Shown piece after piece: positions 14,281-32,830 of a stretch of 64,000 bases of DNA (positions within the stretch are counted from its first letter, which is position 1; each line of letters begins with the position of its first letter). Source of the DNA: a virus. The notes under the pieces are model-generated. The model ran no database searches. It was not told where the DNA came from and saw nothing but the letters and a program-made list of their open reading frames with translations. The stretch spans positions 106,519 to 170,518 of IMG/VR virus record IMGVR_UViG_3300042695_002264; one strand, 5' to 3'. The position numbers were made by a program, and so were the translations under genes.

Positions 14281-16550
14281 GAAAATGTATTAGATGTATT
14301 GTTTCTTTTTGAAGAAGTTATTATCCTAAAAGATTTTGGACGTATAGGTATTTCTTTATATGAGTAAGAAACTCTAAGACCCCTGCTATCTAAAGATGCG
14401 CTTAAAGACTCTAAACCAGGGACAATTGGCAGGAAAAAACCATCACATTCCGCAGACAGAGTAGATAGCCATTTTTGACCATTTCCACCAATAGCCGCAG
14501 GAACTTCAAAAGAAGTAGATGGTTCATTTTCATTTGGCGTCACATCGGTTACGATAACACTGTGCGATAGCCCATAATCGCTATTGACTGGACCAGAAAA
14601 TCCCCAAGAATTTATAGCCTGAGCATATCCAGTTTGATTAGATGAGGAATATTCGCTTTTTATGGTTCTAATCGCTTTAAAGCTAGCAAGTGATGGCATA
14701 ACTACCTTTATTGACTTTCCATTACAATCAATAGAGTAAGATTTTCCTCTGGCATGCTCTAATCCTGGAGATAATTCTGCTGAATTTTCGGAACCATTAT
14801 TAATTACAACATCACGATTTGCATTAATTAAATTTGGAACAATATCTGCGCATTCATCAACTATATCAGGCTTGTCTTGAGGCGGAACAGGATCAAGTAT
14901 TGCATTTGGGTCCTCATAATCATAAACTTCTGTTAAGTCATTTGGATTTTCAGATTCAGATGCTGAAGTAATAGTAATATTATATCTTGGTCGCTTTACA
15001 AATATAATAACCTTTCCATCTTCTTCTATTTGCTTTCTTAATCTTTCCCCAGAAGATACGTAACCCCCAGACTCTTCATTGTTAGTAGTCGGTGCAACTA
15101 AAGTAACTGGAGTGCCTTCTTGGGGGAGGCTTTTTTGGTCATAAATTTGACATATTAAATCATGAGAAACTGTTTTAATACAATCTTCAACTGCCTGAGC
15201 AAAATCTGCCGCCTCAACATCTCCAGAAACATGCTCGCTTACACTGCGCCAATAGCCCTTTCTAACAATATTATTTTGATCTTCAAATGTGCTATTGTAT
15301 GGATTTTTGCCTCTCTGTGAAGGGGGTGGATTAAAAGAAGTTTGTATTTTTTTAAAATTAAACTCGTCTCCACCAGAGCCATTAAAATCGTAAGATTCAT
15401 CATAAGGATAATACAATTCTTGAGTATATTCCTTTGATTGAATATTATTATTCAAAGGATATGCCAAATAAAAATCACCATCTCCATCAATATTTAAATA
15501 TTTAAATATTGCATCTCGAAAATTAGTATTTTTTGAATCAAAATTAAAGTTTGTTGATAAAAAATTTCTCCATTTTGGATCTGTAAGATTTAAAGACATT
15601 TCAATTTTAGATAATACATTATAGCCTAATTTTCTATAGTCTCCATTTGTTAATGCATTATAAACTGATAATGATGGGCAAACTTTTTCTAAAACTTCAT
15701 TATCGGTTGGAAAATTTGGGTGAAGAATTGGAGAAATTGAAACATGCTTATTATCTGTAATATTTAACGCAGCTTCTTGGGTTTGTTTAGTTGGCCATCT
15801 TTCAAAAAACCAAGATGATTGAGAAGATACCCCATCTCTAGTCGCTCCATAATCAAGAGACAAAATCCCACAACCTCCTTGAGGAACATTAATTCTTATA
15901 GAGCCATTTTTTATAGCAACTATTTCATCTTTTCTCCAGTCCCACCACCATCCAATTCCCACATCTGAATAAATACCACCTAAAACACTTCTGTATGTTC
16001 CTTCATAAGAGCACCTTAAATTTTCAGAAATTTTAGGCGCACCAATTATAGCTAATGCTTGATTTGCATTATATGTGACATTGCTAGAGTCACATGGGTT
16101 TGATGACCACTCTTCCTGCCCCAAACCTCCAGCCGAATAGCCAGCCTGTCTTTGCACAACTATATTTAAATTTTTAACTCCAAAACTAAAACTAACTCTT
16201 CCCCTATCATAGCTCGCATTTACTGCTGGAACACTTACGGTTTTTGCTATATTAATTGGCCTTCCGCCAAGCCCTCTTCTAAATAAAACTATGCATTTTT
16301 GATCAAGAGTTATAGAATTATCTATATACTCATAAGTTGTTAAAAATTTTCCTTGTTCTTTATGCGTAGAATAAGAAATTAGCTGCCCAATAAATTCTAT
16401 ACCACCAATGCCGCCGATATTAGATCGATTAAATCCACGATCGCCCAATGTAGTAACTGATAATTTTGCTGGAGAATCGCTAACAGAAGCGCTTAAAGAT
16501 AGCGAAACTATATCTTTATTTGCTCCAATACTTCTTATTTGAATAGCCAT
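14277..16550 (-). CDS. Putative tail tip/hub protein
   Basis: 757 aa, downstream of tape measure; hub-like segment YRSVLGGIYSDVGIGWWWDW. Confidence 0.45.
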   Translation of the reverse strand: MAIQIRSIGANKDIVSLSLSASVSDSPAKLSVTTLGDRGFNRSNIGGIGGIEFIGQLISYSTHKEQGKFLTTYEYIDNSITLDQKCIVLFRRGLGGRPINIAKTVSVPAVNASYDRGRVSFSFGVKNLNIVVQRQAGYSAGGLGQEEWSSNPCDSSNVTYNANQALAIIGAPKISENLRCSYEGTYRSVLGGIYSDVGIGWWWDWRKDEIVAIKNGSIRINVPQGGCGILSLDYGATRDGVSSQSSWFFERWPTKQTQEAALNITDNKHVSISPILHPNFPTDNEVLEKVCPSLSVYNALTNGDYRKLGYNVLSKIEMSLNLTDPKWRNFLSTNFNFDSKNTNFRDAIFKYLNIDGDGDFYLAYPLNNNIQSKEYTQELYYPYDESYDFNGSGGDEFNFKKIQTSFNPPPSQRGKNPYNSTFEDQNNIVRKGYWRSVSEHVSGDVEAADFAQAVEDCIKTVSHDLICQIYDQKSLPQEGTPVTLVAPTTNNEESGGYVSSGERLRKQIEEDGKVIIFVKRPRYNITITSASESENPNDLTEVYDYEDPNAILDPVPPQDKPDIVDECADIVPNLINANRDVVINNGSENSAELSPGLEHARGKSYSIDCNGKSIKVVMPSLASFKAIRTIKSEYSSSNQTGYAQAINSWGFSGPVNSDYGLSHSVIVTDVTPNENEPSTSFEVPAAIGGNGQKWLSTLSAECDGFFLPIVPGLESLSASLDSRGLRVSYSYKEIPIRPKSFRIITSSKRNNTSNTFS

Positions 16551-16561
16551 AAATTGAAAAA

Positions 16562-18346
16562 TTACAGATTATAAATGATTACACCAGTATTGTAGGTTAT
16601 TATATCAATTTCATCGCTTTTTTCTACTTCTTGATAATCAAATCCAAGATAAAGCCTTTGCCCGTTTAGCCAAATCATGGATGTTTTTTTATTAAAATTA
16701 AATGGTACTAAAAAATAAGAACCAGAAGTGTTTTTAATATTATAAGTACCAAAGCCTAATGTATTTTTTTGAACTGTTAATACATTATAGTTTCCACTTA
16801 TATTTCTTAATATCGTATTGGTACCACTGTAATCAATTCCAGAATTTAAAAGTTGACCATTTAAAAAAACAAATGAATTATTAAAATTTAAACTTGATAT
16901 ATTATTGCCACTATTTATCTGCCCAGTCATTAACAGTTCAGATTTTGGCCAAAAATCAATAAGTGAATTATTTTGATTTATAAAACCATAATTTGAATTA
17001 CTAAATATTTTATTTCCAGAAATAAAGTAATCTTCTGATGGTAAATAGTTAATATTTCCACTTTGAATAAGCTCATCATATCCAGAAGATCTCGTTTGCA
17101 ATTGCCCATTATAGTATAATCCAGAAAAATCTTCGCCTATAATGCTATCATATCCATAAGAATTATCTGCATTAATATAATAAAGATTTGTGAAGTTTAT
17201 TCCCGCATCAATTCCAGAATATCCATATATTGATAAAATATCATTAGGATCGATATTAAATGATAAAGATATAGCATTTTGATAATTATAAATATATTCT
17301 GGCCGAGATACAAATGCGGAATTATTAGTAATTGAATATTCGATATAATAACCAGAATCATATTCAAATACATTTGTTCCAGTAAATACACTTGAGCAAA
17401 GTGAAAATAAATTTTGTCCACTAGAATATCCTAAAAAATAACCAGTAAAAACTTTTTGAGCGAATTGATTGAAAATCTCATTATTAAAATCTAAAAATGA
17501 TTCGTGTGTTGCAAAATATTCTCCACTACCAGTACTTAATACAATCTCATTCAGCACGCCACTTGATTGAGCAGAGCACTGTGTTATTTTTATAATATCG
17601 CCATTTAATATGCCAGTTTGTCCAGAGATAGCGCCAGTAATAGTATTTGAATTAATAGATGAAATAATGCCACTAACAAATTCATTTTCAAATATGGAAG
17701 AGCTTAAATAATCTGAATTGTAAATAAATATTTCAGCAACTTCAGCAGATAAAAATCTTCCAGATGGCAAGCTTTGACTTCCTCCAATATAATAATTATT
17801 TGATTTTTTAAAATTTTCATCAAGTGGAGCAAATATTTTTTGAAACGAATTAGATTCTGCATCAAATAAGCCCATTGAAATAGAATTCGATCCATTAATA
17901 GAAAAGCTTACAATTCCAGTTTTATTTGCTTTTAAGCTGTGGCATACAGTAATAGGCCCATAAATTTTATGAGCGTATTCAAAATATGGATAGCCAGCAT
18001 AGTTTATTCCAAAATTGATTCCGGAATCATAATTATAATTTGCAAAAAAAACATTGTCAGATTTTGCATTCCCTAATTTATACGCAAAAATAAAAGATAA
18101 AGAATCTCCACTAAAATAATTTAATTTGGCATAGCTTTGGCCATCAAAACTTGCAAATCCAGATTTCGTCCAAAAATTTCCAGAATTTACCAGCTGTAAT
18201 TGTTCAGCGCGACTTGTCCAGCTTTCGCTTGGAATATTAATTAGCCCAGATATTCCAGTATTAGAAAAATCAAAATAACCAACTATCTGCTCCGTAGATA
18301 GATTTTCATTTTTATCAAAAAAATATTTCATTGAATTTGCTGGCAT
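16562..18346 (-). CDS. Virion protein with LamG/concanavalin-like N-domain and NGQ repeats
   Basis: GYFDF..FDGQSY..YYIGG..EIFIYN (LamG-like); three YYNGQ/FLNGQ/WLNGQ..DY repeats; TAATG overlap supports the MPANS start. Confidence 0.55.
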   Translation of the reverse strand: MPANSMKYFFDKNENLSTEQIVGYFDFSNTGISGLINIPSESWTSRAEQLQLVNSGNFWTKSGFASFDGQSYAKLNYFSGDSLSFIFAYKLGNAKSDNVFFANYNYDSGINFGINYAGYPYFEYAHKIYGPITVCHSLKANKTGIVSFSINGSNSISMGLFDAESNSFQKIFAPLDENFKKSNNYYIGGSQSLPSGRFLSAEVAEIFIYNSDYLSSSIFENEFVSGIISSINSNTITGAISGQTGILNGDIIKITQCSAQSSGVLNEIVLSTGSGEYFATHESFLDFNNEIFNQFAQKVFTGYFLGYSSGQNLFSLCSSVFTGTNVFEYDSGYYIEYSITNNSAFVSRPEYIYNYQNAISLSFNIDPNDILSIYGYSGIDAGINFTNLYYINADNSYGYDSIIGEDFSGLYYNGQLQTRSSGYDELIQSGNINYLPSEDYFISGNKIFSNSNYGFINQNNSLIDFWPKSELLMTGQINSGNNISSLNFNNSFVFLNGQLLNSGIDYSGTNTILRNISGNYNVLTVQKNTLGFGTYNIKNTSGSYFLVPFNFNKKTSMIWLNGQRLYLGFDYQEVEKSDEIDIITYNTGVIIYNL

Positions 18347-19878
18347 TAGTTTTCCTCCCAAGTAATTTGAAATGATATTCTCCCATCAGAAGTTTCATTT
18401 GTGAATGTTTTAGTTTTTATAATTGTCATCGCGTATCTGTTAGCAATTGATTCTATATATGCTTTGGCTTTAGCAGAATTTCCAACCTCTACTTCCATTT
18501 GACCGTCAAACGATACAGTGGTTTTAGATCTATGCGTGCCATAAGCTGCCCAATCACTACAAAGTGGTTGTACAAATTCATATTGCTGCAATCCATATGT
18601 TTTAGTGACTGTATAGGAAATATTTTTTATGTAACAAGGCAAAGATGCATTTATTGGATTTATATCCCAAGATATTGAATAAGATAATGACCCATCTATC
18701 TGATTTTCAGATAGCGATTCTGAGCTTTGCTTGAAATGAGTAACATTAAAATCATTATTTAACCCAGTAATATTCTTACGAAATTCTTGCATTGGATTAA
18801 AAGAATTTTGGAAAAAGTTATTTACTTGCGCAAGTCTTTCTGTTGGATTTCCAACCCTACATCTTATATTAGAATTTAAAGATGCAGAATTTTCCGAATC
18901 ACCTCCATAACCAATATTATAAGTAGCTGTCGAATCTATATATATAATTGGACTATTATCATTATTGAATGTAACTGAAAATGAAATTTGCTTATTTGAT
19001 AAATCTTCATCTACGCCAGAGTTTACATAAATACTATTTAGATCTCCAGAATTTGTACATCCGCTATAAATATCAAAAGTTAAATTCCACAAGTTCAGAC
19101 TTTTATACCTATTTCTTATCAAATCCATTGATCCACTTATGCCAGCATTTAATGTTCCATTGATTGTTGCTGTGGAAAAATTAAATTTATCATACCCAAT
19201 ATCAACAGAATATCTTAATAATCCATTTCCCGTTTGTGACTGATCAATCGTATAATTTTCAATCCATTGACAGTTGCCATTCATTCTATCCATTGTTTCG
19301 GATATAGAATTTAATATTGGAAAAGATTGTTGATTTATTTTTATAAAAGCTGTGCTTGGAATATTTTTTAGTCCAGTTCTGGAGTAAACAAAATTTGTAG
19401 CATTTTTAATTGCTGGCAAGTTTGAATTAATACCAACAGCAGAAACCCTATGTGTAAGAGATAGCGTTCCGTCATTATTTTCAACAAATTCAAAAGAATC
19501 TTCCGGCTCTTTAACAAAAAATTGCCCACTAAAAATATCAGAATCAAATGCTTCAATTTCTACTGTATAAGGCAAAATAAAAGCATAGTTTGACTCATCA
19601 AAGTTTACACCCCTAATTAAAGCATAATCTGATTTAAAAATATCAGAACCATTTTCCTTAATCTGAAATCTTTTAAAATTTTGTGAAAAATTATTTATTA
19701 ATGCATTTTGCTTTCCAACCATTCCAGAATAATCAGTCCCGCACCCAACTATTTCACCTACAAGAGAAAATGATTTGTTTGAGCCCCACCACCCATCAAA
19801 TTCTTGAGAATATGAAACAAATGGCGTATATGAAACCCCACTAAAAGCATTTTTATTATTATACCAAATTTCGTTCAT
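18346..19878 (-). CDS. Distal tail-like protein, paralog of 19880-21436
   Basis: Follows the tape measure; repeated beta units ending in S(F/Y)S(V/I)(T/S)(F/W). Confidence 0.5.
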   Translation of the reverse strand: MNEIWYNNKNAFSGVSYTPFVSYSQEFDGWWGSNKSFSLVGEIVGCGTDYSGMVGKQNALINNFSQNFKRFQIKENGSDIFKSDYALIRGVNFDESNYAFILPYTVEIEAFDSDIFSGQFFVKEPEDSFEFVENNDGTLSLTHRVSAVGINSNLPAIKNATNFVYSRTGLKNIPSTAFIKINQQSFPILNSISETMDRMNGNCQWIENYTIDQSQTGNGLLRYSVDIGYDKFNFSTATINGTLNAGISGSMDLIRNRYKSLNLWNLTFDIYSGCTNSGDLNSIYVNSGVDEDLSNKQISFSVTFNNDNSPIIYIDSTATYNIGYGGDSENSASLNSNIRCRVGNPTERLAQVNNFFQNSFNPMQEFRKNITGLNNDFNVTHFKQSSESLSENQIDGSLSYSISWDINPINASLPCYIKNISYTVTKTYGLQQYEFVQPLCSDWAAYGTHRSKTTVSFDGQMEVEVGNSAKAKAYIESIANRYAMTIIKTKTFTNETSDGRISFQITWEEN

Positions 19879-19879
19879 A

Positions 19880-21436
19880 TTATGCTATAGTCGTTACATT
19901 ATAAGTTGCACTTCTGTCCATCGGACTTATAGATAAAGACTCATCTTGTTTTATTGCTGATGTTGAAATCCTCATATCCTCTGGAAACGAAACCAAATTT
20001 ACATTTTTTCCATATTTTCTATTTTTATTTATAGTTACTTCATAAAATGTTTTTTGATCATGCTGCTGCCTAACAATGCTATTATTTATATAATAATCAG
20101 TATAAATATTTACAGGATATTTTTCAGAAATTGACTCCTTCTCCTCTTCTATTCCGTTTGGATTATTATTTATAGTCTTGTTTGTATAAGATACGCTATA
20201 CTGAACTGTTCCATTGTACTTGCTAGAAGTAAATGTTTCATTGCTTTTATTTAATATGCCGCTAGAACTACAGCGGTTTGTATTTATTGATAAAAATCTA
20301 GAATATAAACTATTTATTTTTGACAATAATAATGATTCTTTTTGATTGTAGCCATAAATAGCATTATTATATTTTCTATCTGTATTTGGCACGCCATCAC
20401 CTTGAATAGACAGATTAGCTGTGCAGTTAATTAGGTAAGTATCGCCAAGATCGACAGATGTTTCAATAGACCAATCATACCTATTCTCTATAAATGGATT
20501 ATCCGTATAGACTGTTTCTAATTCAATTGTACCATTAAATCTATCTACGTTATATCCTTGGGTTATTGGAAAATTATTAAGAGATCCAGTCACATAATTA
20601 ACATAAAAATTCTGTGATCTTTGATAACAGTTAGGCTTTAATTCTGCTAGTTTATTTTTAACGGTTGTAAATTTAGGATCTTGATTGGCCTGTATCTGAA
20701 CAGATTCAGTAACTTCAGTAATTCCATTTTCATCTCTACGAAGTGAATATGAAAAATCAGCGTTTGATGAATCTCCGCTTATGTTTTTATCTAACCTTTC
20801 TGTAAAAGAAAAAATTTTATTTATTACATCAAAGCTTTCTTCGTAATATTTTTTTCCAGATAAAAAATTAGCATTCCCACTTATAAGATTAAATGGCACT
20901 TCTTTTCCAATAATTCCAGACGCAATATTTTTTGCTAATAAATCCGCGCTACCATACGCAAGCGCATTTTCAAAACTAAAACTCACACTATGTTCATAGC
21001 TATAATTATTGCTTGAATCAAGATCTAAAGAAAAATTTTCCGAAAAATCATTCATTAAATGAAGGGATAATCCTGTAAAATTTTGGAGACCAGTAAAATA
21101 ATTACCAGTCATATTATATAAATTACCCGTAGATAAAATTAAAATATCAGCCGTATATTCACCACGCCTTACCCAGTTTCCTTCATCTACATTAATATTT
21201 CTTATATATCCAGATCCAAAATTTATCCCATTTAAAACAATATCATCGCTAACTTTTGCCAAATTTATAAGGGCATATATTCCACTTGATACCCCACTTA
21301 CACCACTTGTGTTGTAAAAATCTGCAATTGTTCCACGTACAGTAAGATTTTTTTCAATACTATAAACAAAATTATCTCCTAAAAATTTAGGAGAATGTGA
21401 GTATGATAGTAATGCTGCATTATTAAAAGTTATCAT
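19880..21436 (-). CDS. Distal tail-like protein immediately after tape measure
   Basis: Synteny; same repeated architecture as 18346-19878. Confidence 0.5.
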   Translation of the reverse strand: MITFNNAALLSYSHSPKFLGDNFVYSIEKNLTVRGTIADFYNTSGVSGVSSGIYALINLAKVSDDIVLNGINFGSGYIRNINVDEGNWVRRGEYTADILILSTGNLYNMTGNYFTGLQNFTGLSLHLMNDFSENFSLDLDSSNNYSYEHSVSFSFENALAYGSADLLAKNIASGIIGKEVPFNLISGNANFLSGKKYYEESFDVINKIFSFTERLDKNISGDSSNADFSYSLRRDENGITEVTESVQIQANQDPKFTTVKNKLAELKPNCYQRSQNFYVNYVTGSLNNFPITQGYNVDRFNGTIELETVYTDNPFIENRYDWSIETSVDLGDTYLINCTANLSIQGDGVPNTDRKYNNAIYGYNQKESLLLSKINSLYSRFLSINTNRCSSSGILNKSNETFTSSKYNGTVQYSVSYTNKTINNNPNGIEEEKESISEKYPVNIYTDYYINNSIVRQQHDQKTFYEVTINKNRKYGKNVNLVSFPEDMRISTSAIKQDESLSISPMDRSATYNVTTIA

Positions 21437-24400
21437 TACTTAAGATTATTTTGCGCTTTTAATTGTTGCATTTTCGCACTGAATTCATCTAATATTCTTT
21501 GTTTTTCTGCTGTTAACTTAAGATCTAAATCCTCTCGTGTTAAACCGCCCAAAGTAAAAGATACTGGGCCAGGATTTATATTTATAGACGGGACAACTGA
21601 AGGGGAATCAGTCAAGCTTATTGGTTTTTCAAAATTAGATGGCTGCGGCTTATCTTTGCCAGACTTTTCTGCAGTAGTTGTGAAATATTCCAACATAGCT
21701 TGTACTGAACTTTCTATTAATTTGAAATTTGCAGCAGCTTGTTCTGCTGAAGTTGTAAGATCAAAAGCCATAGCGTTAACAATTGTTTCATATGCCTTAA
21801 AAGCTTCGCTTCGATCAGCAAATCCGCCAAGTTGCTGAAGTGCCTTTATAGCAGCCTCAACCTCTTTCGACGAACCTTCAAACTTGCCACCTTCCGGTAA
21901 AAATCTATTTTTTAAATAATCAATACCTAATTTGCTTGTGCCAGTAGCCTCCCCAACAGCCTGTTGGTTTAACATTCTTGCCCTGTTTTGATAATCTACT
22001 GGAAGCCCAAGATCAAAAGCCCTTTGCGCTGCGTTATTACCAGCCTGCCTCCTCACATTCATTACATCTGATCCAAATCTTGTAAATATCTCTTCTGGAG
22101 TGGCGCCCAAAGACAAAGCCTCTTTTATTCTTTCTTGTGATCTTCTGGCAACAAACTCATTTTGTCCAATTTCACCACCAAAAAAATCACTCTCTAATTG
22201 GCTAATCGCAGATTTGTTTTTATTATAGCTTAATAAGCTATCTATATCTTGAGACAGTTGCTGCGCTATTTTTTTAGAAGCATCCTTTATTGCTCCAGCC
22301 GCAAGGCTTCTAGTTTTTTCTGCTTGGCCTTTGATATTTATACCAACTTCATCGAAAACTTCTCCATATAATTCTGATAAAACCTTTTTAAAACCAGAAG
22401 ATTCTTCTATAGCTCTTGGGTCAATGTTTAATGTATCACTTATTAATTTTCCAAAATCTTTTTGTATTTGTTCTTTTCCGCCCAATTCTTTTAATCTAGT
22501 TTCTAAATCTGAATCTGTTAAGCCTTGAGTTATACCTGCATTTATTTGTTTTTTAAAAGCATCTCTAATATCTTTTGTCATTTCTCCAGAATATGTTTCT
22601 ATTGGTGGCTGCTTGCCTACCAGCATGCCTGGGGCATTTGGGCCAGAGCCAGATCTTCCAACAAACTCAAAAGCCCTTGCTATTATAGATCTTCTTTGTG
22701 TATTCAATAACTGCTCAACTGATACATCCGCTTGATTCCTGGCTGTTTGTTCTGCTTGTTTTTGTGTAATTTGACCAGAAACTTCCGTTAATCCTTGCAT
22801 TCCGCGCTCTTTAATTGCATTTGTAAATTTTTTAGCAGTTTCAGGATCAAAACTATTTAAATAATTTATATAATTTTGCTCTGCTTTTCTAAGCTCTGAC
22901 TGTGGAGCATTTTCTTCTAATAATCTAGTATATGTTTCGTAAGATGTTGCTAGCCCTTGAGTTTTTTCGTTAACCTTGGCCAATTCTTCGGTAGATTTTT
23001 CTGCTTTAGCCTGCAATTCTGGAAGATTTGTGTTTAATTGTTTTAATATATCTGTTAATCCTATTAGCCCGCCAGTAACCGCACCAAGTGCCGCGCCGAC
23101 TGCCGCTCCCTTTGGTCCAAATGCCATGCCAACCATTCCGCCAGTTCCAGCAAAAGATGCAATTTGGCCAGCGCCACTTACTGCAGATGCCCCAACCCTT
23201 CCGCCTTGTGTATTTTGCGGTATTGCGTTTGCAATTGTTTCTGCAATGATTGGCGCAGCAAATGCCGTTCCAATACCTGGTCTAAAGCCTTTTGCTGATG
23301 ATATTCCCCGTTGAAGAATGCCTGCACCTGACCTTCTAGCTGCACGTTGAGCTTGCGCCCTTTGCTCAATATCAAGCATGGCAGCATTATATCCAGACGA
23401 TCCTCTTTGTAGTGGGCCAGGCCCCATAGTTGACATTTTTTGAAGATTTGCTTTTTGTTGGGATATAGATTTCCTTTCAAGCTCAGCCCTTTGCTTATAC
23501 GTTTCCTTTAATTCATTTACATCTTTTTTTCCTAATTGAGAAATACTAGCAAACAATGCGATTTGCGCGGCAACTGCCCCAATAGATTTAGCAAAATCTG
23601 AAATACCGCCTTGGGCTTCACCTTCACTACCAACTGCAAAATTTGGAGTAAATCCGGTAGCATACATCCCCATACCTTTGCGCTCGCGCCCAATTGCATC
23701 TTTTAATCCATTAGGTTCGTCACGCGTGTTTGTTACTGCAACTGGATTTCCACTCTTATCAAAGTGCGCGCGAATTTGTGAAACTGGAACTCCACGATTT
23801 GTAGATGAAAAATTTGGTATAAAACCAGAAGCTTTTGATCTTGATAATTGTCCAGGTTTAATTTTTAATTTATTACTGATAAAAGCTTTTCTAGCAACAT
23901 CATTTATTAAATTTTGTTGATTCCCAATTTTTGCTTCGTAGTCTCCAGGAATATTATTAAATAATTTTCTTAATTTGTCATTTGGGTTAACAAAGTCAAT
24001 AATAGCACTTGATCCACCAGACCTTCCGGCCTGTGTAACAGCAGAATCTGTAGCCTGCGTCACGGCACTTTCAAATATATTACCAGCAATACTTCTAAAA
24101 GATCCATAATTTGCAAGCTGTTGTACTGATTTTATTCTAGCATTTGGAGAATAATTGCCGAAAATGCTTATAAATCGATTTGTAAAATCAATAACTTGAT
24201 CTCCTAATAATTTTTCTAACTGAGCATCTTCTGGTTTAACTTTGGCATTGTAACCACTTGATTTAAATCCTACTTTATAAGTTTTTCCATTTGGTGTTTT
24301 TTTATCTGTAATAAGGCCCTTTTGATCTGTATTGAAAAATCCTGTCTCATCTTTTATCCCAGCTTTTTCGCCATATATTAAACTTAAAGTACTAGTTTTG

Positions 24401-26478
24401 CCAAGATCAATAGTACTAGATGAACTTTTTCCCAGAGATGGTTTTTTTGCTGTGCCTAGTCTAGAATTAACAGCTTCAGCCGTAAATCTTTGACTTAATT
24501 GTGATCTAGAATATTGATTGCTTTGTATTGCCTCTTCTAATGAAATATTTGGTGGCAATTTTGTTTTTGCAAAATTTGGAATAAAACCAGAAGATGAAAT
24601 TTTACGAGCACCACTTGGCAACCCATACTTTGCTTTCATATCTTTGTTAAAGATAGCAGTTCCATCCCCACCAGCAAAATTTGGCACAACCCACTCTCCG
24701 GTATGTGCAGTTATTTTACCTTTCTTGCCTCCACCAAATGCAAAATTCGGAATAGTAACGGGCCTATCAGTTGCCGGATTTGCGCCACCAACTCTTGCAT
24801 TAATATTCGCTTGCTCAATTGATTCTGGTAAATATCCAGCAGCAGCAGTTTTTGTCTTTGTAGCTACAAACTGCCTTCCTCCTATTGTTTGTACCCCAAC
24901 AGATCCAGCAAGTGATTTAGATATCGATGCAGCAACAGAATTTTGCCTTTGCAAAGCTGCTGTCTGTTGTTGTATAACTGCCAAATATTCTTTGGCCGCA
25001 GTTGAAACAGAAACCTGCCCCTTTAAAATAGAATTATACAAACCGCTATTGTTTTGTAAAAATTTTGCTATATTTTGCTGAACCACCACCTGCTCTTTTC
25101 CTGCCTGATTTGTTCCCAAAATACTTTTAAAAGCCTCTGCTCCATACTTTGTAAACTCAGCTAATAACTTAACGATTATTGCCGTTGCTAAAGCGAGCCC
25201 AGGCCCAGCAATAAATTTACCAAGACCATCAATTACCCCTCTACCAATCTGACCACCAACGCTTTGCGAATCTGCATTTCCCACAGACTCTGTTAATAAA
25301 TTTGTTAAGTTTAAAACATTTCTAGCAGCATCTCCAAATAACCCCTCTCCAAGAGTTCCAGCAACTTTTTGAACATTTGCCAATGTTTTTGTTCCCAACG
25401 CAGATAACGTTTGATTTAACTGTTCATTTCTTTGAATGGCCTGATCGGTACTCGATAATGATGTTTTAAGCGCACGGTCGTAAATTGAATACTCCTTACC
25501 TAAATCACCTAAAGCAGCTTTTAAGATGTTAATCTGGAAAACGCCGCCAACCTGCTCTGCTACATAATTTTTTTGAGTAGCTCCAAGCGTATCATAAACT
25601 AATGCAAGCTCTTTTAAAAGTTGAATTTGTGTTTTTACCTGACCGCTTTCATCAGTTGCGCTAATTCCAAGACCGCCCAAAACCTCTTGAACTTTTTCTC
25701 GACCAAGTCTTGTAAAAATTGTTTTCAGTGAGTTTCCTATAACCGCACCTCCACGAGCAGTAATTTGCTGCGCAGTTGTCACTAAAGCTATCAATTCGTC
25801 AAAAGAAATTCCAGCATCGTCAGCAGAAGATCCAACACGACTCAATGCATTAGCCAAATCTGCAGAGCTAACAGCAAATGCGGCATCAACATTAGCCAGC
25901 TTATTTACAATTTCTGTCGCTTCCAATGTCGCACTCTGAAAAGAGTTCATTGTAGCAGTAAGAGCCGCAACACTTGCTGCAGCATCCAGACCACTTAAAC
26001 GAGTCAAGATTAGCGCTGCCTCAGTACGTTTTAATGTTTCTTCTACCCCAAGGCCCTGACGAGACAACTCTGTTGCTGCTTCTGCAACAACATCAAATGC
26101 TTGCGCTGTATTTCCAGCAATATCAAATAATGAGCTTCCAAAAGCCGCAAGATTTTTTTCTGACAAATTTAATATAACATTTATGTCTTGTAATTTTTTC
26201 TCTGTATTTACAAAACTCTGAAATAAAGACACTACTGCATTTTGTAATGCAAAAATACTTCCAGCAGCTGCGCCGAATGCAATAACACGAGCATTAGCAG
26301 CAGCCAAAGACTTATCAATTTCAGTTATTTGGCCGCTTAATTTTCCTAATGGTTGAGCGGCCCCCCTACCACCAGCCTGCACATCAATAACTAGTGGCTG
26401 CTTAGCAACTTGGTTTATCTGTTGCCTAAGCTTCGCTGTATTACCGCTAACATCTACGCTAATATTTGGGTTTGCCAT
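21436..26478 (-). CDS. Tail tape measure protein (TP901-type core) with internal cargo-like domains
   Basis: 1680 aa, Ala/Gly-rich; ELSRQGL...VDAAFAVSSADLANALSRVGSSA..GISFDEL..GNSLKTIFTRL core; hydrophobic glycine-zipper segments. Confidence 0.92.
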   Translation of the reverse strand: MANPNISVDVSGNTAKLRQQINQVAKQPLVIDVQAGGRGAAQPLGKLSGQITEIDKSLAAANARVIAFGAAAGSIFALQNAVVSLFQSFVNTEKKLQDINVILNLSEKNLAAFGSSLFDIAGNTAQAFDVVAEAATELSRQGLGVEETLKRTEAALILTRLSGLDAAASVAALTATMNSFQSATLEATEIVNKLANVDAAFAVSSADLANALSRVGSSADDAGISFDELIALVTTAQQITARGGAVIGNSLKTIFTRLGREKVQEVLGGLGISATDESGQVKTQIQLLKELALVYDTLGATQKNYVAEQVGGVFQINILKAALGDLGKEYSIYDRALKTSLSSTDQAIQRNEQLNQTLSALGTKTLANVQKVAGTLGEGLFGDAARNVLNLTNLLTESVGNADSQSVGGQIGRGVIDGLGKFIAGPGLALATAIIVKLLAEFTKYGAEAFKSILGTNQAGKEQVVVQQNIAKFLQNNSGLYNSILKGQVSVSTAAKEYLAVIQQQTAALQRQNSVAASISKSLAGSVGVQTIGGRQFVATKTKTAAAGYLPESIEQANINARVGGANPATDRPVTIPNFAFGGGKKGKITAHTGEWVVPNFAGGDGTAIFNKDMKAKYGLPSGARKISSSGFIPNFAKTKLPPNISLEEAIQSNQYSRSQLSQRFTAEAVNSRLGTAKKPSLGKSSSSTIDLGKTSTLSLIYGEKAGIKDETGFFNTDQKGLITDKKTPNGKTYKVGFKSSGYNAKVKPEDAQLEKLLGDQVIDFTNRFISIFGNYSPNARIKSVQQLANYGSFRSIAGNIFESAVTQATDSAVTQAGRSGGSSAIIDFVNPNDKLRKLFNNIPGDYEAKIGNQQNLINDVARKAFISNKLKIKPGQLSRSKASGFIPNFSSTNRGVPVSQIRAHFDKSGNPVAVTNTRDEPNGLKDAIGRERKGMGMYATGFTPNFAVGSEGEAQGGISDFAKSIGAVAAQIALFASISQLGKKDVNELKETYKQRAELERKSISQQKANLQKMSTMGPGPLQRGSSGYNAAMLDIEQRAQAQRAARRSGAGILQRGISSAKGFRPGIGTAFAAPIIAETIANAIPQNTQGGRVGASAVSGAGQIASFAGTGGMVGMAFGPKGAAVGAALGAVTGGLIGLTDILKQLNTNLPELQAKAEKSTEELAKVNEKTQGLATSYETYTRLLEENAPQSELRKAEQNYINYLNSFDPETAKKFTNAIKERGMQGLTEVSGQITQKQAEQTARNQADVSVEQLLNTQRRSIIARAFEFVGRSGSGPNAPGMLVGKQPPIETYSGEMTKDIRDAFKKQINAGITQGLTDSDLETRLKELGGKEQIQKDFGKLISDTLNIDPRAIEESSGFKKVLSELYGEVFDEVGINIKGQAEKTRSLAAGAIKDASKKIAQQLSQDIDSLLSYNKNKSAISQLESDFFGGEIGQNEFVARRSQERIKEALSLGATPEEIFTRFGSDVMNVRRQAGNNAAQRAFDLGLPVDYQNRARMLNQQAVGEATGTSKLGIDYLKNRFLPEGGKFEGSSKEVEAAIKALQQLGGFADRSEAFKAYETIVNAMAFDLTTSAEQAAANFKLIESSVQAMLEYFTTTAEKSGKDKPQPSNFEKPISLTDSPSVVPSININPGPVSFTLGGLTREDLDLKLTAEKQRILDEFSAKMQQLKAQNNLK

Positions 26479-26553: not shown

Positions 26554-27567
26554 TTATTTTTTTATTAAATCATAGATCCCCAAATCACCCCTCTGATTTG
26601 TTTCTTGTATAATTTTATCCCCAGATACCTCGCCACCACCAATGGCCTTAACTTCATCCCTATTTCCAAATAAAAATGAAGAGCTATTATCTGAGCCAGA
26701 TTTATTTTTTAATTTATTACGGGCATCTGACATTGTTTCTTTTTGCTTTTTAGACGCCTCAAACCAGTCAATTATTTTGTCTGGATCCTCATAAATGCTA
26801 TCTGGAATATTGCCATCTGAATTTTTGATAATATTTTGATAATACTTTCCAAAAATAAGCAAATCAGACTGATGTTTTGTCAAATCTATAGCACATTTTC
26901 CAAACACATCTTTTGGGTTTGATCCTGAAATATAAATAATATTTTGAAAAAGTGACGAGATAGCCAGCTGTTTAATTTTCTTTTCTGCGAAATCTGTTAA
27001 AAATTTATAGTAATAAATAGTTAATTCATCAACAAGCAAATCGTCAGATAATTCAAAATCATCTATCTGTTCAAAAAACCTTTTATTAAAATATTGATCT
27101 TTAAATACAAAATTTTGCAAAAAATAATCTACGGTTTTCTTGCTAGACCAATCTTCAGCAGTCATTACAATATAAGCACTTCTTTCATCTTTTAACTTCT
27201 TAAGACGATTTTCTTGCTCTTTAATCTGTTCTGATATTCTAGACTTATCAGATTCGTAAATTAGCTTTGATTGAGTTTTTTTTAACCTATCTATGGAAAT
27301 TTTAGTAGATTCAAGCGCACCCTCTTTTTCTTTTGTCCACCACCCATTATCATAAGCAGTTTGAATTTGCTCTTTTTCTGGAAAAATTCCATGATGTCTC
27401 GCCAGCTTTAAATTACCAGCATAATCATTTCTTATTCCAAGAAGTTCAAAATGATTTAAGTGCTTAAAATACGCTGGCTGTTTTTCACTAGAAATCAGCA
27501 CATATTTGCTATAGCCATTAGATATATCTTCTAATACGGCCAATAATATATCAATTTGGCCATCCAT
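26554..27567 (-). CDS. Putative tail assembly chaperone
   Basis: Lies between tail tube and tape measure; coiled-coil; paralog of the next gene. Confidence 0.5.
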   Translation of the reverse strand: MDGQIDILLAVLEDISNGYSKYVLISSEKQPAYFKHLNHFELLGIRNDYAGNLKLARHHGIFPEKEQIQTAYDNGWWTKEKEGALESTKISIDRLKKTQSKLIYESDKSRISEQIKEQENRLKKLKDERSAYIVMTAEDWSSKKTVDYFLQNFVFKDQYFNKRFFEQIDDFELSDDLLVDELTIYYYKFLTDFAEKKIKQLAISSLFQNIIYISGSNPKDVFGKCAIDLTKHQSDLLIFGKYYQNIIKNSDGNIPDSIYEDPDKIIDWFEASKKQKETMSDARNKLKNKSGSDNSSSFLFGNRDEVKAIGGGEVSGDKIIQETNQRGDLGIYDLIKK

Positions 27568-27580
27568 GGATTATTATATT

Positions 27581-28312
27581 TTAACTAGATTCTTTTTGTG
27601 ATGCAGAGTCAACCAAAACAAAATCTTGCCATTGATTAATTTTATTTAAAAACCATAAAGTTATTAAATAGTTAAATCTTTGACCAATTTTTACCAAATA
27701 GACATCATTTTCATCATCTAAATTTAAACCATCATACCAGTCTAATTTTTGATCAAAACTTGTGCCTTCAAAAAATTTTTCGTTTTCATTTTTATATGCC
27801 AGCTCTGTCAACCACCATTGAATCGACATATTTCTAGCTTTTGCCTCTGCTGTGTTTTCAAAAATATAAATCTGTTCAAGTTCAAATGTTTGTATATCTT
27901 TTTTAACTTGATCAATTTCCTCTTGCAGCCGTGCTTGTTTTACCGTCTGCTCTTCGTTTAATTCTGAAATTTGTTCAAGTTTATTTAATTCTATACTGTA
28001 TTCAAAAAATTTTTTCCTGGCATCGGTATATTGCTGAGCCTCTGATTCTGAAATTGTTCCACCCAAATTTTCTAAAATAGTATTCCATGCAGCTTTTGGT
28101 AAAAGCCCAGACTTCACAAAGCTTGCAAGTTGCTTTGCATATTCTATTTCGCCCATTTGCCTTAAAGAGCGCGAAGGTTTTAGGATATAAAATGTATTTT
28201 CTTCACCTTTTGGATTTTTAGCCTCAAAAGCATAAAGCCATTTTTTAGTATCAAAATCTGCTTTTATTTCGTTCTGATTTTGGTCGTTTTGGTTATCAAT
28301 ATTTTCACTCAT
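27581..28312 (-). CDS. Putative tail assembly chaperone
   Basis: Synteny; coiled-coil followed by TAE..FFE motif. Confidence 0.5.
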   Translation of the reverse strand: MSENIDNQNDQNQNEIKADFDTKKWLYAFEAKNPKGEENTFYILKPSRSLRQMGEIEYAKQLASFVKSGLLPKAAWNTILENLGGTISESEAQQYTDARKKFFEYSIELNKLEQISELNEEQTVKQARLQEEIDQVKKDIQTFELEQIYIFENTAEAKARNMSIQWWLTELAYKNENEKFFEGTSFDQKLDWYDGLNLDDENDVYLVKIGQRFNYLITLWFLNKINQWQDFVLVDSASQKESS

Positions 28313-28314
28313 AT

Positions 28315-28551
28315 TTACTTATTATTATCCTTATTAATTAAAACAAAATCAAAATTTTCTATCTCTTGTAGAATTTCTCTTATGCAGTTATTTCCATTAT
28401 CAAGAATTCTTTTTCTTATTTTTTGAAATTCTTCCTCAGACATTCGACCGTCAGCAACAATGTCTTCTAGACAGTATATAAAGAATAAAAAGAGACGAGT
28501 AACAGATTTTTTAATAAAACCTTTAATAAATTCTTTAATATCAAATTTCAC
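28315..28551 (-). CDS. Small hypothetical protein (candidate translational regulator)
   Basis: GTG start; basic helix KIRKRILD; preceded by the conserved leader. Confidence 0.55.
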   Translation of the reverse strand: MKFDIKEFIKGFIKKSVTRLFLFFIYCLEDIVADGRMSEEEFQKIRKRILDNGNNCIREILQEIENFDFVLINKDNNK

Positions 28552-28584
28552 CTTTATAAACCTTTTTCCTTAATAGGTATTACA
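28552..28584 (-). promoter_or_regulatory. TGTAAT late-promoter motif plus conserved AAGGAAAAAGG leader
   Basis: TGTAAT-acctatt-AAGGAAAAAGG-TTTATAAAG-GTG. Confidence 0.65.
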
Positions 28585-28596
28585 CTTAAAAAACAA

Positions 28597-28622
28597 AAAG
28601 GGCAGGATTTCTCCTGCCCTTT
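28597..28622 (-). terminator. Rho-independent terminator after tail tube gene
   Basis: AAAGGGCAGGA-GAAA-TCCTGCCCTTT perfect 11-bp stem followed by a T-rich tail. Confidence 0.9.
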
Positions 28623-28641
28623 ATTTGTTAAGTTTTATTGA

Positions 28642-29754
28642 TTAGCTTAATGCTGCCACTGGATAACTTCCAGATAAGAAAATACCGCGAACAGTATCTT
28701 CTGGTCCGCCAATTGGAACTTCGAAATCGGCACTTAATGTTGCATTTCCACCAATTGTTGTAGCAAGGGCTTGGCTTACCAATTTGGCGCCCTTTAGCGT
28801 AGCGCTCATAGCTACATCTCCTTGCCCAGAACAGTTGATTTTTTTCAATTTCAATGTTAAATCGTATGTTCCAGTTTGGCACAATAAATCAGAAACGCTA
28901 CCATTAGTTAAATCTCCAATTTCTGTTTCAACAGAAAGAGTTGCTGTAACAGGGAAATCAATTTCTCTTGCAAAAGAGAATCTACTGCCCAATTTATTGA
29001 TTGGCGTACGTGTTAAGTCAAAGCTCATAGAAGCGCTTTGAATTTTTAAGTCGCTTGCGGCAAAACCAACAACGCCAGTTAAATCAAGAGTTGCATCGCC
29101 TGGAAGTAGTGCCGTTGGTTGTGCTCCGTATGCATTTGTTTTATGTTGTGGCAAAACAAAGTACTGACCCGCAATAGACAATCCATTTTCAGGATTTACT
29201 GCAGGAACATCATTTGTTCCAGTAACATTTCCATAAATTTTTGTATTTAATGCCTCTAAGGCAACTGTTGCTGTAGGTATATCTCCAACGGCAACATCAA
29301 GCGTATAAGAAGTGATGAATGTATTTCCAATACCAACAACGCCGCTAACACTTCCAGCAAAACTAGAAGCATCACTTCCTTCAGATGTTACTAAAAGATA
29401 TAAATTTTTTTCATCTGTATTCTTTTGAAGAATATCTTTAATGCAAGATACTCCAGCTTGGTTACCAGTTGTTACCGTTAGCCCCAAAAATTTTTCATTA
29501 AGGCCATCTGTAACATAATAAGAAACGTTAGAAGTAACGGTTGGTGCTTCTGCATCAAGACGATCAATGAACGCCAAGTTACCAAATTGGTTGATGTCTG
29601 TTAAATTGCGTGTAAAATCTGAGTCAAAAGACTGTACACGGGTTAACTGTTTGATGTCGCTAGCGCCAGTTTGCATGATTCTAGCACCATTTGAGCCAGT
29701 TGTTTGGCTGGCAAAAACTCCTAGTGATTGATAAATAATTCGATTTCTGCTCAT
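28642..29754 (-). CDS. Major tail (tube) protein
   Basis: 370 aa, beta-rich, two tube-like halves (RVQS..INQFG / IQSA..INKLG..FPV); followed by a strong terminator; position before chaperones and tape measure. Confidence 0.7.
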   Translation of the reverse strand: MSRNRIIYQSLGVFASQTTGSNGARIMQTGASDIKQLTRVQSFDSDFTRNLTDINQFGNLAFIDRLDAEAPTVTSNVSYYVTDGLNEKFLGLTVTTGNQAGVSCIKDILQKNTDEKNLYLLVTSEGSDASSFAGSVSGVVGIGNTFITSYTLDVAVGDIPTATVALEALNTKIYGNVTGTNDVPAVNPENGLSIAGQYFVLPQHKTNAYGAQPTALLPGDATLDLTGVVGFAASDLKIQSASMSFDLTRTPINKLGSRFSFAREIDFPVTATLSVETEIGDLTNGSVSDLLCQTGTYDLTLKLKKINCSGQGDVAMSATLKGAKLVSQALATTIGGNATLSADFEVPIGGPEDTVRGIFLSGSYPVAALS

Positions 29755-29831
29755 ATTTTTATATTAATTTAAATTAAAGTATTACTCTTATATAATTACA
29801 TTTAAAAAGCATGAAAGGCACATTTTTTTTG

Positions 29832-30707
29832 TTATAATCTTGGCTGCCTCACATACTTCACTGTAAAATCAGCAAATCCACCATAGGCGTTATTTCCTAA
29901 AAGTTTATTAACAGAAGGTGCAAATCTGGATATTTTAACAGATTCAACTAGCGCCATTAGAGAGCCAGTCTGGCAATATTGTGAGTATAAATTATTAAAA
30001 TTATAATTTAATCCATTTTTATAATCACCATAAATATTAAAAGGCATATCTTTAGGATGTAGTACTGGAAAATATTTTCTTGCCATATCTGTGGCTATAG
30101 AAACGCCAGCATCTAGCAAATATGGCGAATCAGCCAAAAATATACATCTAATATCCAAAACAGTTTCATCTAATCCGCCAAATGCGAATGGTAAATTTTC
30201 TGTATATTGACTTTTTACAAAAATAGCTGGATATGTAACTTGGTCATGTTGAAGTGGCGTATTCGCAATATTTCCATAATTGTCCGTTGGCCTTACTGGA
30301 TATTTTGCCTCAAATATAAGCTCTTCGTCTTGAGATTCGTTATAATAAACATTATATTCTTTATAAGCATATGATAGTTTTAAGTTATTAAGATTTGAGG
30401 GGGCAGATCCATTAAATATTGTCCTGCCCATATCATAATCAATATAAAGCCCACTCGAACCTTTATTTATAATAACATTGCCAGCACTTACTCCAGATGG
30501 AATATTTGCCCCTATAACTGAGCTATCTGCAACAAATTGTCTATATGGACTAGAATAAATTTTTTTATCTGGAAAATTTGGATCTTCAGTTTGATACAAT
30601 TGCCCGCTATTAACATTTACAAACCCATTACCTTTATAAAGCATTTCATGATCTATAAAGAGCGTGAAGCTTGGTGCTATTCGATTTAAAAACTGTGGAG
30701 ACATCAT
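29832..30707 (-). CDS. Putative tail terminator/neck protein
   Basis: Synteny; YPAIFV..PFAFGG. Confidence 0.5.
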   Translation of the reverse strand: MMSPQFLNRIAPSFTLFIDHEMLYKGNGFVNVNSGQLYQTEDPNFPDKKIYSSPYRQFVADSSVIGANIPSGVSAGNVIINKGSSGLYIDYDMGRTIFNGSAPSNLNNLKLSYAYKEYNVYYNESQDEELIFEAKYPVRPTDNYGNIANTPLQHDQVTYPAIFVKSQYTENLPFAFGGLDETVLDIRCIFLADSPYLLDAGVSIATDMARKYFPVLHPKDMPFNIYGDYKNGLNYNFNNLYSQYCQTGSLMALVESVKISRFAPSVNKLLGNNAYGGFADFTVKYVRQPRL

Positions 30708-30711
30708 GCGA

Positions 30712-31302
30712 TTATAATTCCTTTAAATTTTTAATAAATTTTGTCCAAATTGGAGACCAGTATTTTGTTGTTCTATATATTGATCCTCTTACAGGACTTT
30801 TTGCTTGTATACCGCCGCCAGAACGTCCAAGCTTTTTAGATATAAAGTTTGAAAATCCAGAAATTCCGCGCTCAATAGATATTATCCATGACTTTCCAGA
30901 CTCCCATGGCATTCCAGCATTAGAGACATATTCATTATTTTTAATTTGATCTACTTGAAACTCAAGCACAAAACCATTATTGCCATTTTGACGCTCGCCA
31001 CTTTTGCGTAAAATTCTTATCTTTTGCTCTATAAAATTTACCCACTGATCTACCGGATTATCACCATTATCAAAACCTATAAAAGAAAATAGATTTCCAT
31101 ATCCACCCAAAGTACCAGACGAATTTGAAGACGATGAACCTCCTGCAATTTCTGCAGAAACTGGATGCGCTTTAAAATCATTTATAAGTTCAATTTTTGC
31201 GTTCGCTAGTTTTGTTTCCGCAACTGCACGCATTTGTTTTTGAACATTTGACGTTTTTAAAACTGCTAAATTTAAAAGTTTTGGATCGACAAGTTTTGGC
31301 AT
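30712..31302 (-). CDS. Putative neck/tail completion protein
   Basis: Synteny; SW..SIERG motif, basic protein. Confidence 0.45.
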   Translation of the reverse strand: MPKLVDPKLLNLAVLKTSNVQKQMRAVAETKLANAKIELINDFKAHPVSAEIAGGSSSSNSSGTLGGYGNLFSFIGFDNGDNPVDQWVNFIEQKIRILRKSGERQNGNNGFVLEFQVDQIKNNEYVSNAGMPWESGKSWIISIERGISGFSNFISKKLGRSGGGIQAKSPVRGSIYRTTKYWSPIWTKFIKNLKEL

Positions 31303-31745
31303 TATTGCATATCCCTTCTTTTTGCGTATATTGTATAAAAATTAATATCAAATAAACCATGTGGCTTTGGAACTCCAACTATTTCACATGGCAAATCATC
31401 AACATAAAAAGATTGATATCCACTTAAAAAATCATATGCATCTTTTTTCATTTTTAGCCTACATAATTGCCCAGGTAGTGGATTTTCAATTGGTAAATTT
31501 TCTTCTTTACGAGGGTCTAGCCACTGTATTCTCATTAAAAATGTTCCTGATACTGGTGTCGTATCATACTGCAAATTGGCACCCTGCTTATAGCCCCTAT
31601 ACGCTGAAATATAATCATCATTACTTATAATATCAATACGCTCTGGCATTTTATATATAATAACATTTCTTCCAAATGTATCATGCAAATTATTAAATTG
31701 CGAAGACATTTCTGCTTTTTCTGCAGCTGATAAAAAAGATGGCAT
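31302..31745 (-). CDS. Putative head-tail joining (stopper) protein
   Basis: Synteny and size; HDTFGRNVIIYK. Confidence 0.5.
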   Translation of the reverse strand: MPSFLSAAEKAEMSSQFNNLHDTFGRNVIIYKMPERIDIISNDDYISAYRGYKQGANLQYDTTPVSGTFLMRIQWLDPRKEENLPIENPLPGQLCRLKMKKDAYDFLSGYQSFYVDDLPCEIVGVPKPHGLFDINFYTIYAKRRDMQ

Positions 31746-31748
31746 AAA

Positions 31749-32297
31749 TTATAAACCAGGTTCGCTTCTTGGATAATACACGCTACGATTTGCTTCCGCC
31801 CAATAACCGCCATCGACAACATCAGTTCCATCAACCGATTGTGGTTTGGATTTTGATTTCAAGTATTGTTTTACCAAGTTATTGGCATTATCTTGAGCAT
31901 CCTTACGAAAACCTTGGTAAGTTCTGGCAAGCTCTGATCTATTAACTCTTGTTATTGTGGAATCGCCCTCTTTTAATGTAGTCCATGCGCCAATATTATA
32001 TGCACCAGAAAGGGCCATTTTAGCCTCTCTACCATAAAAAAATGTATCAAAATTAGCCTTATAAATTGATTGCTCTTGATTTCCCAATTGAGGCTCTATG
32101 CCAATACCAGTAACCTTTCCGGCATTAGAAAAATAAGGCGTTACTTGATAACATCCATCAATTTGATTATTCAAATAGCCAAGATTTGCAGGGTCTAAAA
32201 ACCAACCAACCAAATATGTGCTAGAATAATCGTCTCTGTCGCCCAAATCAGAAGAGACATTATTTACAAAATCATTTAACCATTTAGGGTATTGCAT
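31749..32297 (-). CDS. Putative head-tail adaptor
   Basis: Synteny; EGDSTITR..Y pattern; start placed at MQYPKW, 7 nt after TGTAAT. Confidence 0.5.
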   Translation of the reverse strand: MQYPKWLNDFVNNVSSDLGDRDDYSSTYLVGWFLDPANLGYLNNQIDGCYQVTPYFSNAGKVTGIGIEPQLGNQEQSIYKANFDTFFYGREAKMALSGAYNIGAWTTLKEGDSTITRVNRSELARTYQGFRKDAQDNANNLVKQYLKSKSKPQSVDGTDVVDGGYWAEANRSVYYPRSEPGL

Positions 32298-32339
32298 GTT
32301 ATTAATTACACGCAATCAGTGCTTAATTAATCTACAAAA

Positions 32340-32705: not shown

Positions 32706-32780
32706 AATATTATTTATTTAATTTATTATAATAATAGCCTAGGCACAATTCTAAATTAATATTTAATATAAAAAAAGAAA

Positions 32781-32802
32781 AAGCCCTGATTTCTCAGGGC
32801 TT
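32781..32802 (-). terminator. Rho-independent terminator after major capsid gene
   Basis: AAGCCCTGA-GAAA-TCAGGGCTT stem followed by a T-run. Confidence 0.88.
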
Positions 32803-32830
32803 AATCTTTGATTAACTTCTTGAACTTTGA

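Follow-up and report, generated by a model that had tools for sequence, protein, structure and literature searches.

A heptad-framed module in a phage tape measure protein

The DNA studied here (the window) is the right-hand 64 kb of the virus record IMGVR_UViG_3300042695_002264 in IMG/VR, a record of 170,518 bp that CheckV rates as complete (estimated 100%). On the minus strand of the window, one gene encodes what is, by its sequence, a TP901-type phage tail tape measure protein (TMP). The middle of this protein holds a module of 246 residues, amino acids (aa) 638-883, which lies between two copies of the heptad SGFIPNF. This segment is a real, independently folding module of the TMP family. 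It contains a small set of charged residues that are conserved across the family and that probably form a functional site, for which we tentatively put forward a nuclease-type activity. The features of the gene are collected in Table 1.

Table 1. Features of the tape measure gene, with nucleotide (nt) positions counted in the window. HMM, hidden Markov model; pLDDT, predicted local distance difference test score.
Feature	Position (nt)	Strand	Evidence
Tape measure protein gene P0001 (TP901-type TMP), 1680 aa	21436..26478	minus	single long open reading frame; PF10145 and PHROG tape-measure families
Hydrophobic Gly/Ala-rich stretch, aa 415-446	25141-25236	minus	hydropathy scan; upstream of central block
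Small beta-rich module, aa 565-626, holding the PNF motifs at aa 577 and 599	24601..24786	minus	strands, pLDDT about 80-85 (aa 565-960 model)
Upstream SGFIPNF heptad, aa 630-636	24571..24591	minus	exact motif; pLDDT <50 in aa 565-960 model
Module, aa 638-883, 246 residues, between two SGFIPNF heptads	23830..24567	minus	coordinates verified; AlphaFold model; homologous modules in relatives
Conserved core, aa 785-870, ~85 residues: Glu helix, Asp bridge, short helix, ExK strand, Lys helix	23869..24126	minus	core HMM
E803 codon (GNIFE)	24070..24072	minus	E 137/152, D 15/152; model helix 154-172
D828 codon (IIDF)	23995..23997	minus	D 146/152 (96%); beside one-residue beta bridge in model
E848-A-K850 codons (YEAK)	23929..23937	minus	position 848: E 87, D 62 of 152 (98% acidic); K850 151/152; model strand 209-213
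K864 codon, fifth conserved residue	23887..23889	minus	K 138, Q 11 of 152; model helix 218-230
Downstream SGFIPNF heptad, aa 884-890	23809..23829	minus	exact motif; pLDDT <50 in aa 565-960 model
Small module, aa 891-944, with NP..G..V.NTRDEP motif	23647..23808	minus	conserved in 41 relatives; beta hairpin, pLDDT about 61-63
Fifth PNF, aa 945-947	23638-23646	minus	follows aa 891-944 module
Hydrophobic Gly/Ala-rich stretches (aa 958-984, 1068-1087, 1116-1146)	23041..23607	minus	hydropathy scan; directly downstream of central block

The assignment of the gene product relies on its N-terminal part, where the Pfam scan places PF10145 at aa 124-312 (E-value 1e-25; 91.3 bits against a cut-off of 33.2) and where several PHROG tape-measure families match as well (best E-value 1.8e-43). 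The limits of the module had been given correctly in the initial annotation, which described a 246-residue segment framed exactly by two SGFIPNF motifs (nt 23830-24567). From the composition of the protein, the number of extra exact copies of this heptad expected by chance is 2.6e-6, so that the second copy is not a chance event. In an alignment of 41 relatives, the G, P and N columns of the upstream heptad are invariant and its F is near-invariant, while in the downstream heptad G, P, N and F are all invariant. The TMP has three further PNF motifs, at aa 577, 599 and 945.

The module is basic, with a net charge of +15 and an isoelectric point (pI) of 9.9, and so are most of its homologues (median pI 9.4; net positive in 111/122). 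It had also been called Lys-rich, which is true yet modest (10.6% Lys versus 7.1% in the whole TMP). In the TMP as a whole, His and Trp make up 0.1% of the residues each and Cys is absent; from the module, all three of these and Met are missing. Hence, only acidic residues and Lys are available for any catalysis by the module.

A word-indexed search with aa 570-960 returned 488 related proteins, and PF10145 is present in nearly all of the best 120 of these 488. The set of relatives used below, 154 TMPs, was gathered by similarity to this same central region. The homologous stretches in relatives are again framed by G[FY][IV]PNF motifs, which usually stand 225-255 residues apart. When the module alone was searched exhaustively with HMMER against 1.84 billion representative proteins, 40 matches were found, 37 of them in proteins longer than 1100 residues. 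The three shorter matches (619, 166 and 447 aa) bear PNF motifs and resemble TMP fragments, and not one of the 40 is a stand-alone homologue of the module. Among the proteins searched, the module thus occurs solely inside TMPs. The TMP family that carries it is known from metagenomes alone. A tblastn search of GenBank phages gave no match, a scan of one genome per prokaryote species gave no relative, and IMG/VR holds 6 related loci.

Conserved charged residues and the predicted fold

The initial annotation had singled out three motifs in the module, GNIFE (E803), IIDF (D828) and GDYEAK (E848 and K850), as the ordered signature of a PD-(D/E)xK nuclease, and their positions (nt 23929-24084) were verified. 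It had also set the conservation of these residues in homologues as a test in advance. An HMM of the conserved core finds 152 copies in 147 of the 154 related TMPs, and its conserved columns are G799 (invariant), F802 (near-invariant) and five charged residues, for which the counts are given in Table 1. A full-domain alignment of about 124 copies, made by iterating a profile over the 154 TMPs, gives a similar picture: position 803 is E in 120 and D in 4, 828 is D in 124/124, 848 is E in 85 and D in 38, 850 is K in 123/123, and 864 is K in 121 and Q in 2. Likewise, in the alignment of 47 sequences that was used for structure prediction, G792, G799, F802, D828, K850 and K864 are invariant and E803 is near-invariant. 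E803, D828, E848 and K850 are therefore among the few invariant or near-invariant columns of the family, which clearly passes the conservation test, and K864 joins them as a fifth residue that had escaped the earlier description.

Exchange of E for D at two acidic positions, next to a Lys that does not change, is a usual mark of residues that catalyse or bind metal. Given that E803, D828, E848 and K850, together with K864, are conserved across the family, we conclude that this charged constellation is probably a functional site, most simply a catalytic or a metal-binding one.

The AlphaFold2 model of aa 638-883 was built with the 47-sequence alignment and has a mean pLDDT of 88.4 and a predicted template modelling score of 0.71. 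In the numbering of the segment (to which 637 is added to obtain TMP numbering), the N-terminal part consists of three short helices, then of long strands at 52-68, 71-80 and 95-106 and a helix at 117-135. These are followed by helix 154-172, which bears E803, and a short helix at 175-180; by a one-residue bridge at 192, adjoining D828, and helix 197-202; and by strand 209-213, which bears E848 and K850, and helix 218-230, which bears K864. A second model, of aa 565-960, reproduces the same elements. In both models, E803 is on a long helix, D828 comes after hydrophobic residues at a beta bridge, and E848 and K850 are two residues apart on a single strand, so that they face the same side of it. 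The secondary-structure context of the motif residues in the two models thus fits a PD-(D/E)xK-type motif.

Searches with the model and with the module sequence gave little to compare it with. Foldseek against PDB returned nothing at E <= 0.001 (the top rows were small GTPases, with template modelling scores of about 0.2), a search of BFVD returned nothing, feature and shape searches of the ESM Atlas returned nothing useful, and a profile search of PDB sequences gave only a chance match to plant lectins. We also considered whether compact variants of the domain are circularly permuted, such that the N-terminal strands of the module would correspond to the C-terminal hairpin of the variants (e.g. 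P0143:635-804). Variants of the P0143:635-804 and P0100:633-808 types have significant homology to the core. The idea of a permutation was rejected: an HMM of the N-terminal part misses those tails, and there is no gain in score of permuted over native order (33.0 versus 34.1, 41.2 versus 40.4 and 21.0 versus 18.3 bits).

The heptad-delimited block and the slots of relatives

In the relatives, the number of G[FY]IPNF heptads per TMP ranges from 4 to 10. The heptads stand at module edges and delimit up to about ten slots, compared with one large module and two mini-modules in the TMP of the window. The heptads with PNF at aa 634, 888 and 945 have pLDDT values below 50 in the aa 565-960 model, where they look like exposed linkers, whereas the PNF motifs at aa 577 and 599 are modelled as strands of a folded mini-domain and not as linkers. 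In many distant TMPs, just 17-20% of the aa 570-960 query is matched, at 63-90% identity. To judge from the alignment and from shared motifs, the block they have in common with our TMP is probably aa 565-626. The second mini-module, aa 891-944, has its own conserved columns in the 41 relatives: E921 is invariant, and D920, P922, N911, P912 and N917 are near-invariant.

A survey of the domains between PNF motifs, which the initial annotation had proposed, did uncover enzyme-like modules in the relatives, although most of the other slot modules have no family match. Two slot modules are GNAT acetyltransferases by Pfam Acetyltransf_1, namely P0135:1117-1294 (33.9 bits) and P0143:1017-1193 (22.8 bits), both above the cut-off of 20.7; each is placed between heptads, directly after the homologue of the aa 638-883 module. 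Two other slot modules have weak P-loop matches, which are below threshold.

A slot family with 11 members, A5, deserves a separate description. Its members occupy the first slot in P0008-P0012, P0049, P0076, P0093, P0137, P0144 and P0153 (e.g. P0009:639-844), and have an invariant E, D, ExK and K in canonical-looking motifs that resemble YE, SSAVDGY, LEVK and NKF. The nearest named neighbours of A5 by language model all have the restriction-endonuclease fold (Tox-REase-7, Mrr_cat, Tox-REase-2, Tox-REase-5 and AHJR), at scores of 0.77-0.81 that serve as a lead only, and comparison of A5 with Pfam, PHROG, PDB sequences and stand-alone proteins gave no match. Homology between A5 and the module was considered but is not supported by hhalign, which gives a probability of 0.07-0.7% and an alignment that is limited to the stretch of ExK and the Lys helix.

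Cell-wall-degrading domains are also found in the relatives. VanY, glucosaminidase, GH19 chitinase, phage lysozyme and SLT domains are present in P0042, P0060, P0068, P0072 and P0094 at about aa 1680-1990, about 700-1000 residues downstream of the module.

As for the surroundings of the block, the Gly/Ala-rich stretches on both sides of it resemble membrane segments. Beyond the gene, ten large neighbours on the minus strand (13114-21436 and 26554-33946) were scanned and gave 0 Pfam or PHROG matches; the virion module of this phage is therefore very divergent.

Functional readings and known systems

The reading that we place first, albeit with little confidence, is that the module is a divergent, non-canonical, metal-dependent hydrolase of the PD-(D/E)xK-like nuclease type, which would be ejected with the TMP. 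E803 on its helix, D828 after the hydrophobic stretch, E848-x-K850 on the strand and K864 on the next helix would then constitute the active site. During ejection, the module would pass through the tail as part of the TMP, to which flexible linkers with the G[FY]IPNF heptads would tether it, and its target would be nucleic acid as infection begins. What the analysis shows is the module with its limits, its conservation, its confinement to TMPs and its basic charge; that it is catalytic, what it acts on, its entry into the cell and a release at the heptads are inferred. This reading is put first because the exact E/D/[E/D]xK residues occur in a fitting helix and strand context, because the module is basic, and because sister slots hold enzymatic cargo. 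The spacings between the motif residues, 25 and 20 residues, are inside what we take to be the range for PD-(D/E)xK enzymes. The A5 slot family, with its invariant E, D, ExK and K and its neighbours of the restriction-endonuclease fold, also speaks for a nuclease, though as a lead only.

Several results weigh against a nuclease. To begin with, the bare E..D..[DE]xK motif is expected by chance and has no weight alone: the ordered pattern E-x15-40-D-x10-30-[DE]-x-K turns up in 57% of copies when the segment is shuffled, and 9 times across the whole TMP. Furthermore, DSSP assignments for the two AlphaFold models, neither of which is a solved structure, lack a contiguous alpha-beta-beta-beta-alpha-beta core. 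In the models, the stretch from the Glu helix to the Asp is devoid of strands, the Asp and the ExK strand are separated by an additional helix, and the three long strands sit N-terminal to the Glu helix, unlike in the restriction-endonuclease core; in the alignments, the region where strand 1 is expected is polar and variable in length across the family. Of the restriction-endonuclease fold that had been proposed for the module, what stands is the ordered and conserved E/D/[E/D]xK set, but not the contiguous alpha-beta-beta-beta core.

The profile comparisons are also unfavourable to a nuclease. The module and its 47 aligned homologues have no family match in Pfam, NCBIfam or PHROGs, and neither the Hjc model nor the Mrr_cat model of Pfam has a match in a six-frame translation of the whole 170-kb phage genome. 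The hhalign templates were YraN of E. coli K-12 and an alignment of 121 catalytic-domain sequences of E. coli K-12 Mrr and its relatives (effective number of sequences, Neff, 1.9). Against these and against A5, the family or its core reaches less than 1% probability in all cases. Finally, almost every TMP with the heptad block has one copy of the core in a fixed place, and a core TMP function suits such a distribution better than an accessory weapon. The nuclease reading is hence weakened by the missing strand, by the lack of a fold or profile link, and by the one-copy, fixed-position distribution. A resemblance to Mrr and Hjc (the Gly-rich run before the Asp, and FE on the first helix) was set aside at an hhalign probability of 0.2-0.3% against the Mrr alignment and YraN, which is a weak negative given the low diversity of the template (Neff 1.9). 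In sum, the nuclease domain of the initial annotation survives as a conserved, probably catalytic module, but one that the sequence and profile comparisons made here do not link to any PD-(D/E)xK family, and the terms 'restriction-endonuclease fold' and 'attacks host DNA/RNA' amount to a hypothesis at the level of motifs.

The one-copy distribution also fits a second reading, which we consider rather unlikely but the nearest contender: the module may serve the TMP itself. Conceivable roles are those of a knot (structural, oligomerising or metal-binding), of a site at which the tube, the hub or the chaperone docks, or of an organiser of the channel once the flanking hydrophobic segments have entered the membrane; the conserved charges would then make up salt bridges or a cation site. 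In 147 of the 154 TMPs sharing the heptad block, the core occurs once and in the same place, which agrees with such a role, although this near-universality is partly a selection effect, as the relatives were collected by similarity to the same region. Strong conservation extends over the entire central block (aa 565-960), with invariant residues in the two small modules as well, and the block is flanked by the hydrophobic Gly/Ala-rich stretches at aa 415-446 and aa 958-1146. The model of the module matches no known enzyme fold, and its confinement to TMPs among the 1.84 billion representative proteins likewise speaks for a role within the TMP. However, five conserved charges that allow exchange of E for D or K for Q only would be unusual for a purely structural element. 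Nor is a structural role in the assembled tail straightforward, given the size of the tail-tube lumen: three copies of a folded 246-residue domain should exceed the room available there.

A third and more improbable reading makes the module the processing engine of a polyprotein. The P-N-F of the heptads would be cleavage or release sites (e.g. by Asn cyclisation between N and F), and the E/D/K site would catalyse or assist this cleavage and so free the cargo modules. In line with this, heptads and core always co-occur while the contents of the other slots vary (GNAT, weak P-loop-like and unknown modules), the core is present in a single copy even in TMPs with many slots, and heptads 3, 4 and 5 are in low-confidence linkers, as exposed sites would be. 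Acid-assisted self-cleavage at Asn-Xaa, Asn-Phe included, occurs in virus capsid maturation, in the coat proteins of nodaviruses and tetraviruses. Nevertheless, cleavage of the TMP is suggested by analogy only, the PNF motifs at aa 577 and 599 belong to the strands of a folded mini-domain, no heptad is docked on the domain in the aa 565-960 model, and the family searches gave no match to a protease or lyase. When the module was modelled in complex with a peptide of the downstream heptad (aa 873-905), the ipSAE score was 0.00, which is evidence neither way. We regard as slightly less probable again the more ambitious idea that the TMP family is a modular delivery polyprotein. There, the heptads would be release or self-cleavage sites, the universal module a new heptad-processing or nucleic-acid-cutting enzyme, and the variable slots swappable effectors (GNAT, nuclease-like) that are fired in before phage gene expression.

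The enzymatic domains known in TMPs are muralytic (PMC1796659), and the module might accordingly be an envelope-acting enzyme, for instance a glycan or lipid hydrolase or lyase with acidic catalytic residues, as a counterpart of those motifs. We hold this to be the least likely of the readings, as relatives with lysozyme, SLT, VanY, glucosaminidase or GH19 domains also keep the module (judged by full-length alignment), which is therefore not their substitute, and as it has no similarity to lysozyme-like or other hydrolase folds. The Pfam scan recognises no muralytic domain in the TMP of the window, and conserved Glu and Asp residues suit glycoside hydrolysis, but an invariant Lys two residues past the acid is not known as a feature of lysozyme-like sites. 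The probability that is not taken up by the nuclease-type hydrolase and its three rivals is left to functions that we have not thought of.

TMPs are usually seen as rulers, some of which bear a motif for degrading the cell wall. The TMPs described here form a whole clade, from uncultured phages, in which a domain confined to TMPs has been retained; its model matched no known fold in the searches made, its conserved site looks enzymatic, and the slots of relatives hold acetyltransferases and other modules. Should the module prove catalytic, enzymes of a further class would enter with the DNA before phage gene expression, with a bearing on early host takeover and counter-defence, and the heptad would supply a sequence rule for spotting such cargo in metagenomes. 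If it is structural, it would mark a conserved, so far undescribed part of the ejection machinery.

With the compact PD-(D/E)xK nucleases of the Hjc, Mrr and YraN type, the module shares an ordered acidic residue on a helix, an Asp after small or hydrophobic residues, an [E/D]-x-K strand and a basic domain. It differs from them in its model, where strand 1 is missing from the stretch that joins the Glu helix to the Asp and a helical insert precedes ExK, and in its confinement to TMPs; no nuclease-fold domain of a TMP turned up in our searches of the literature. The self-cleaving Asn-Xaa proteins of viruses (nodavirus and tetravirus coats, and the asparagine peptide lyases of MEROPS) resemble the heptads in that an invariant Asn precedes Phe or Ala within an exposed segment of a virion protein, near conserved acidic residues, whereas they have no sequence or fold relation to this TMP, such that the likeness of the heptad is one of analogy only.

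Hydrolysis of peptidoglycan by a TMP-embedded motif is established: the TMP of mycobacteriophage TM4 carries an Rpf-like peptidoglycan hydrolase motif (PMC1796659). Like the motif of TM4 and the lysozyme, SLT and VanY domains of the relatives, our module is a functional module inside a TMP and is presumably delivered via the tail; unlike them, it is not muralytic by any test, and it lies mid-protein between heptads instead of far downstream. The polyvalent proteins of phages and conjugative elements are virion-delivered multi-domain polypeptides with GNATs and self-processing peptidases (Iyer et al. 2017; PMC5512222), and that paper mentions tape measure proteins 0 times. Polyvalent proteins string unrelated enzymatic domains on one polypeptide, and the TMP slots of the relatives hold GNAT and other modules. 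Nucleases are reportedly also among the domains of polyvalent proteins. The system described here differs from polyvalent proteins in that the carrier is the TMP itself, in its fixed G[FY]IPNF separators, and in having only one large slot in the TMP of the window. The module and its heptads are best classed as an undescribed domain family and an undescribed delimiting heptad within a known type, the TMP that carries functional modules.

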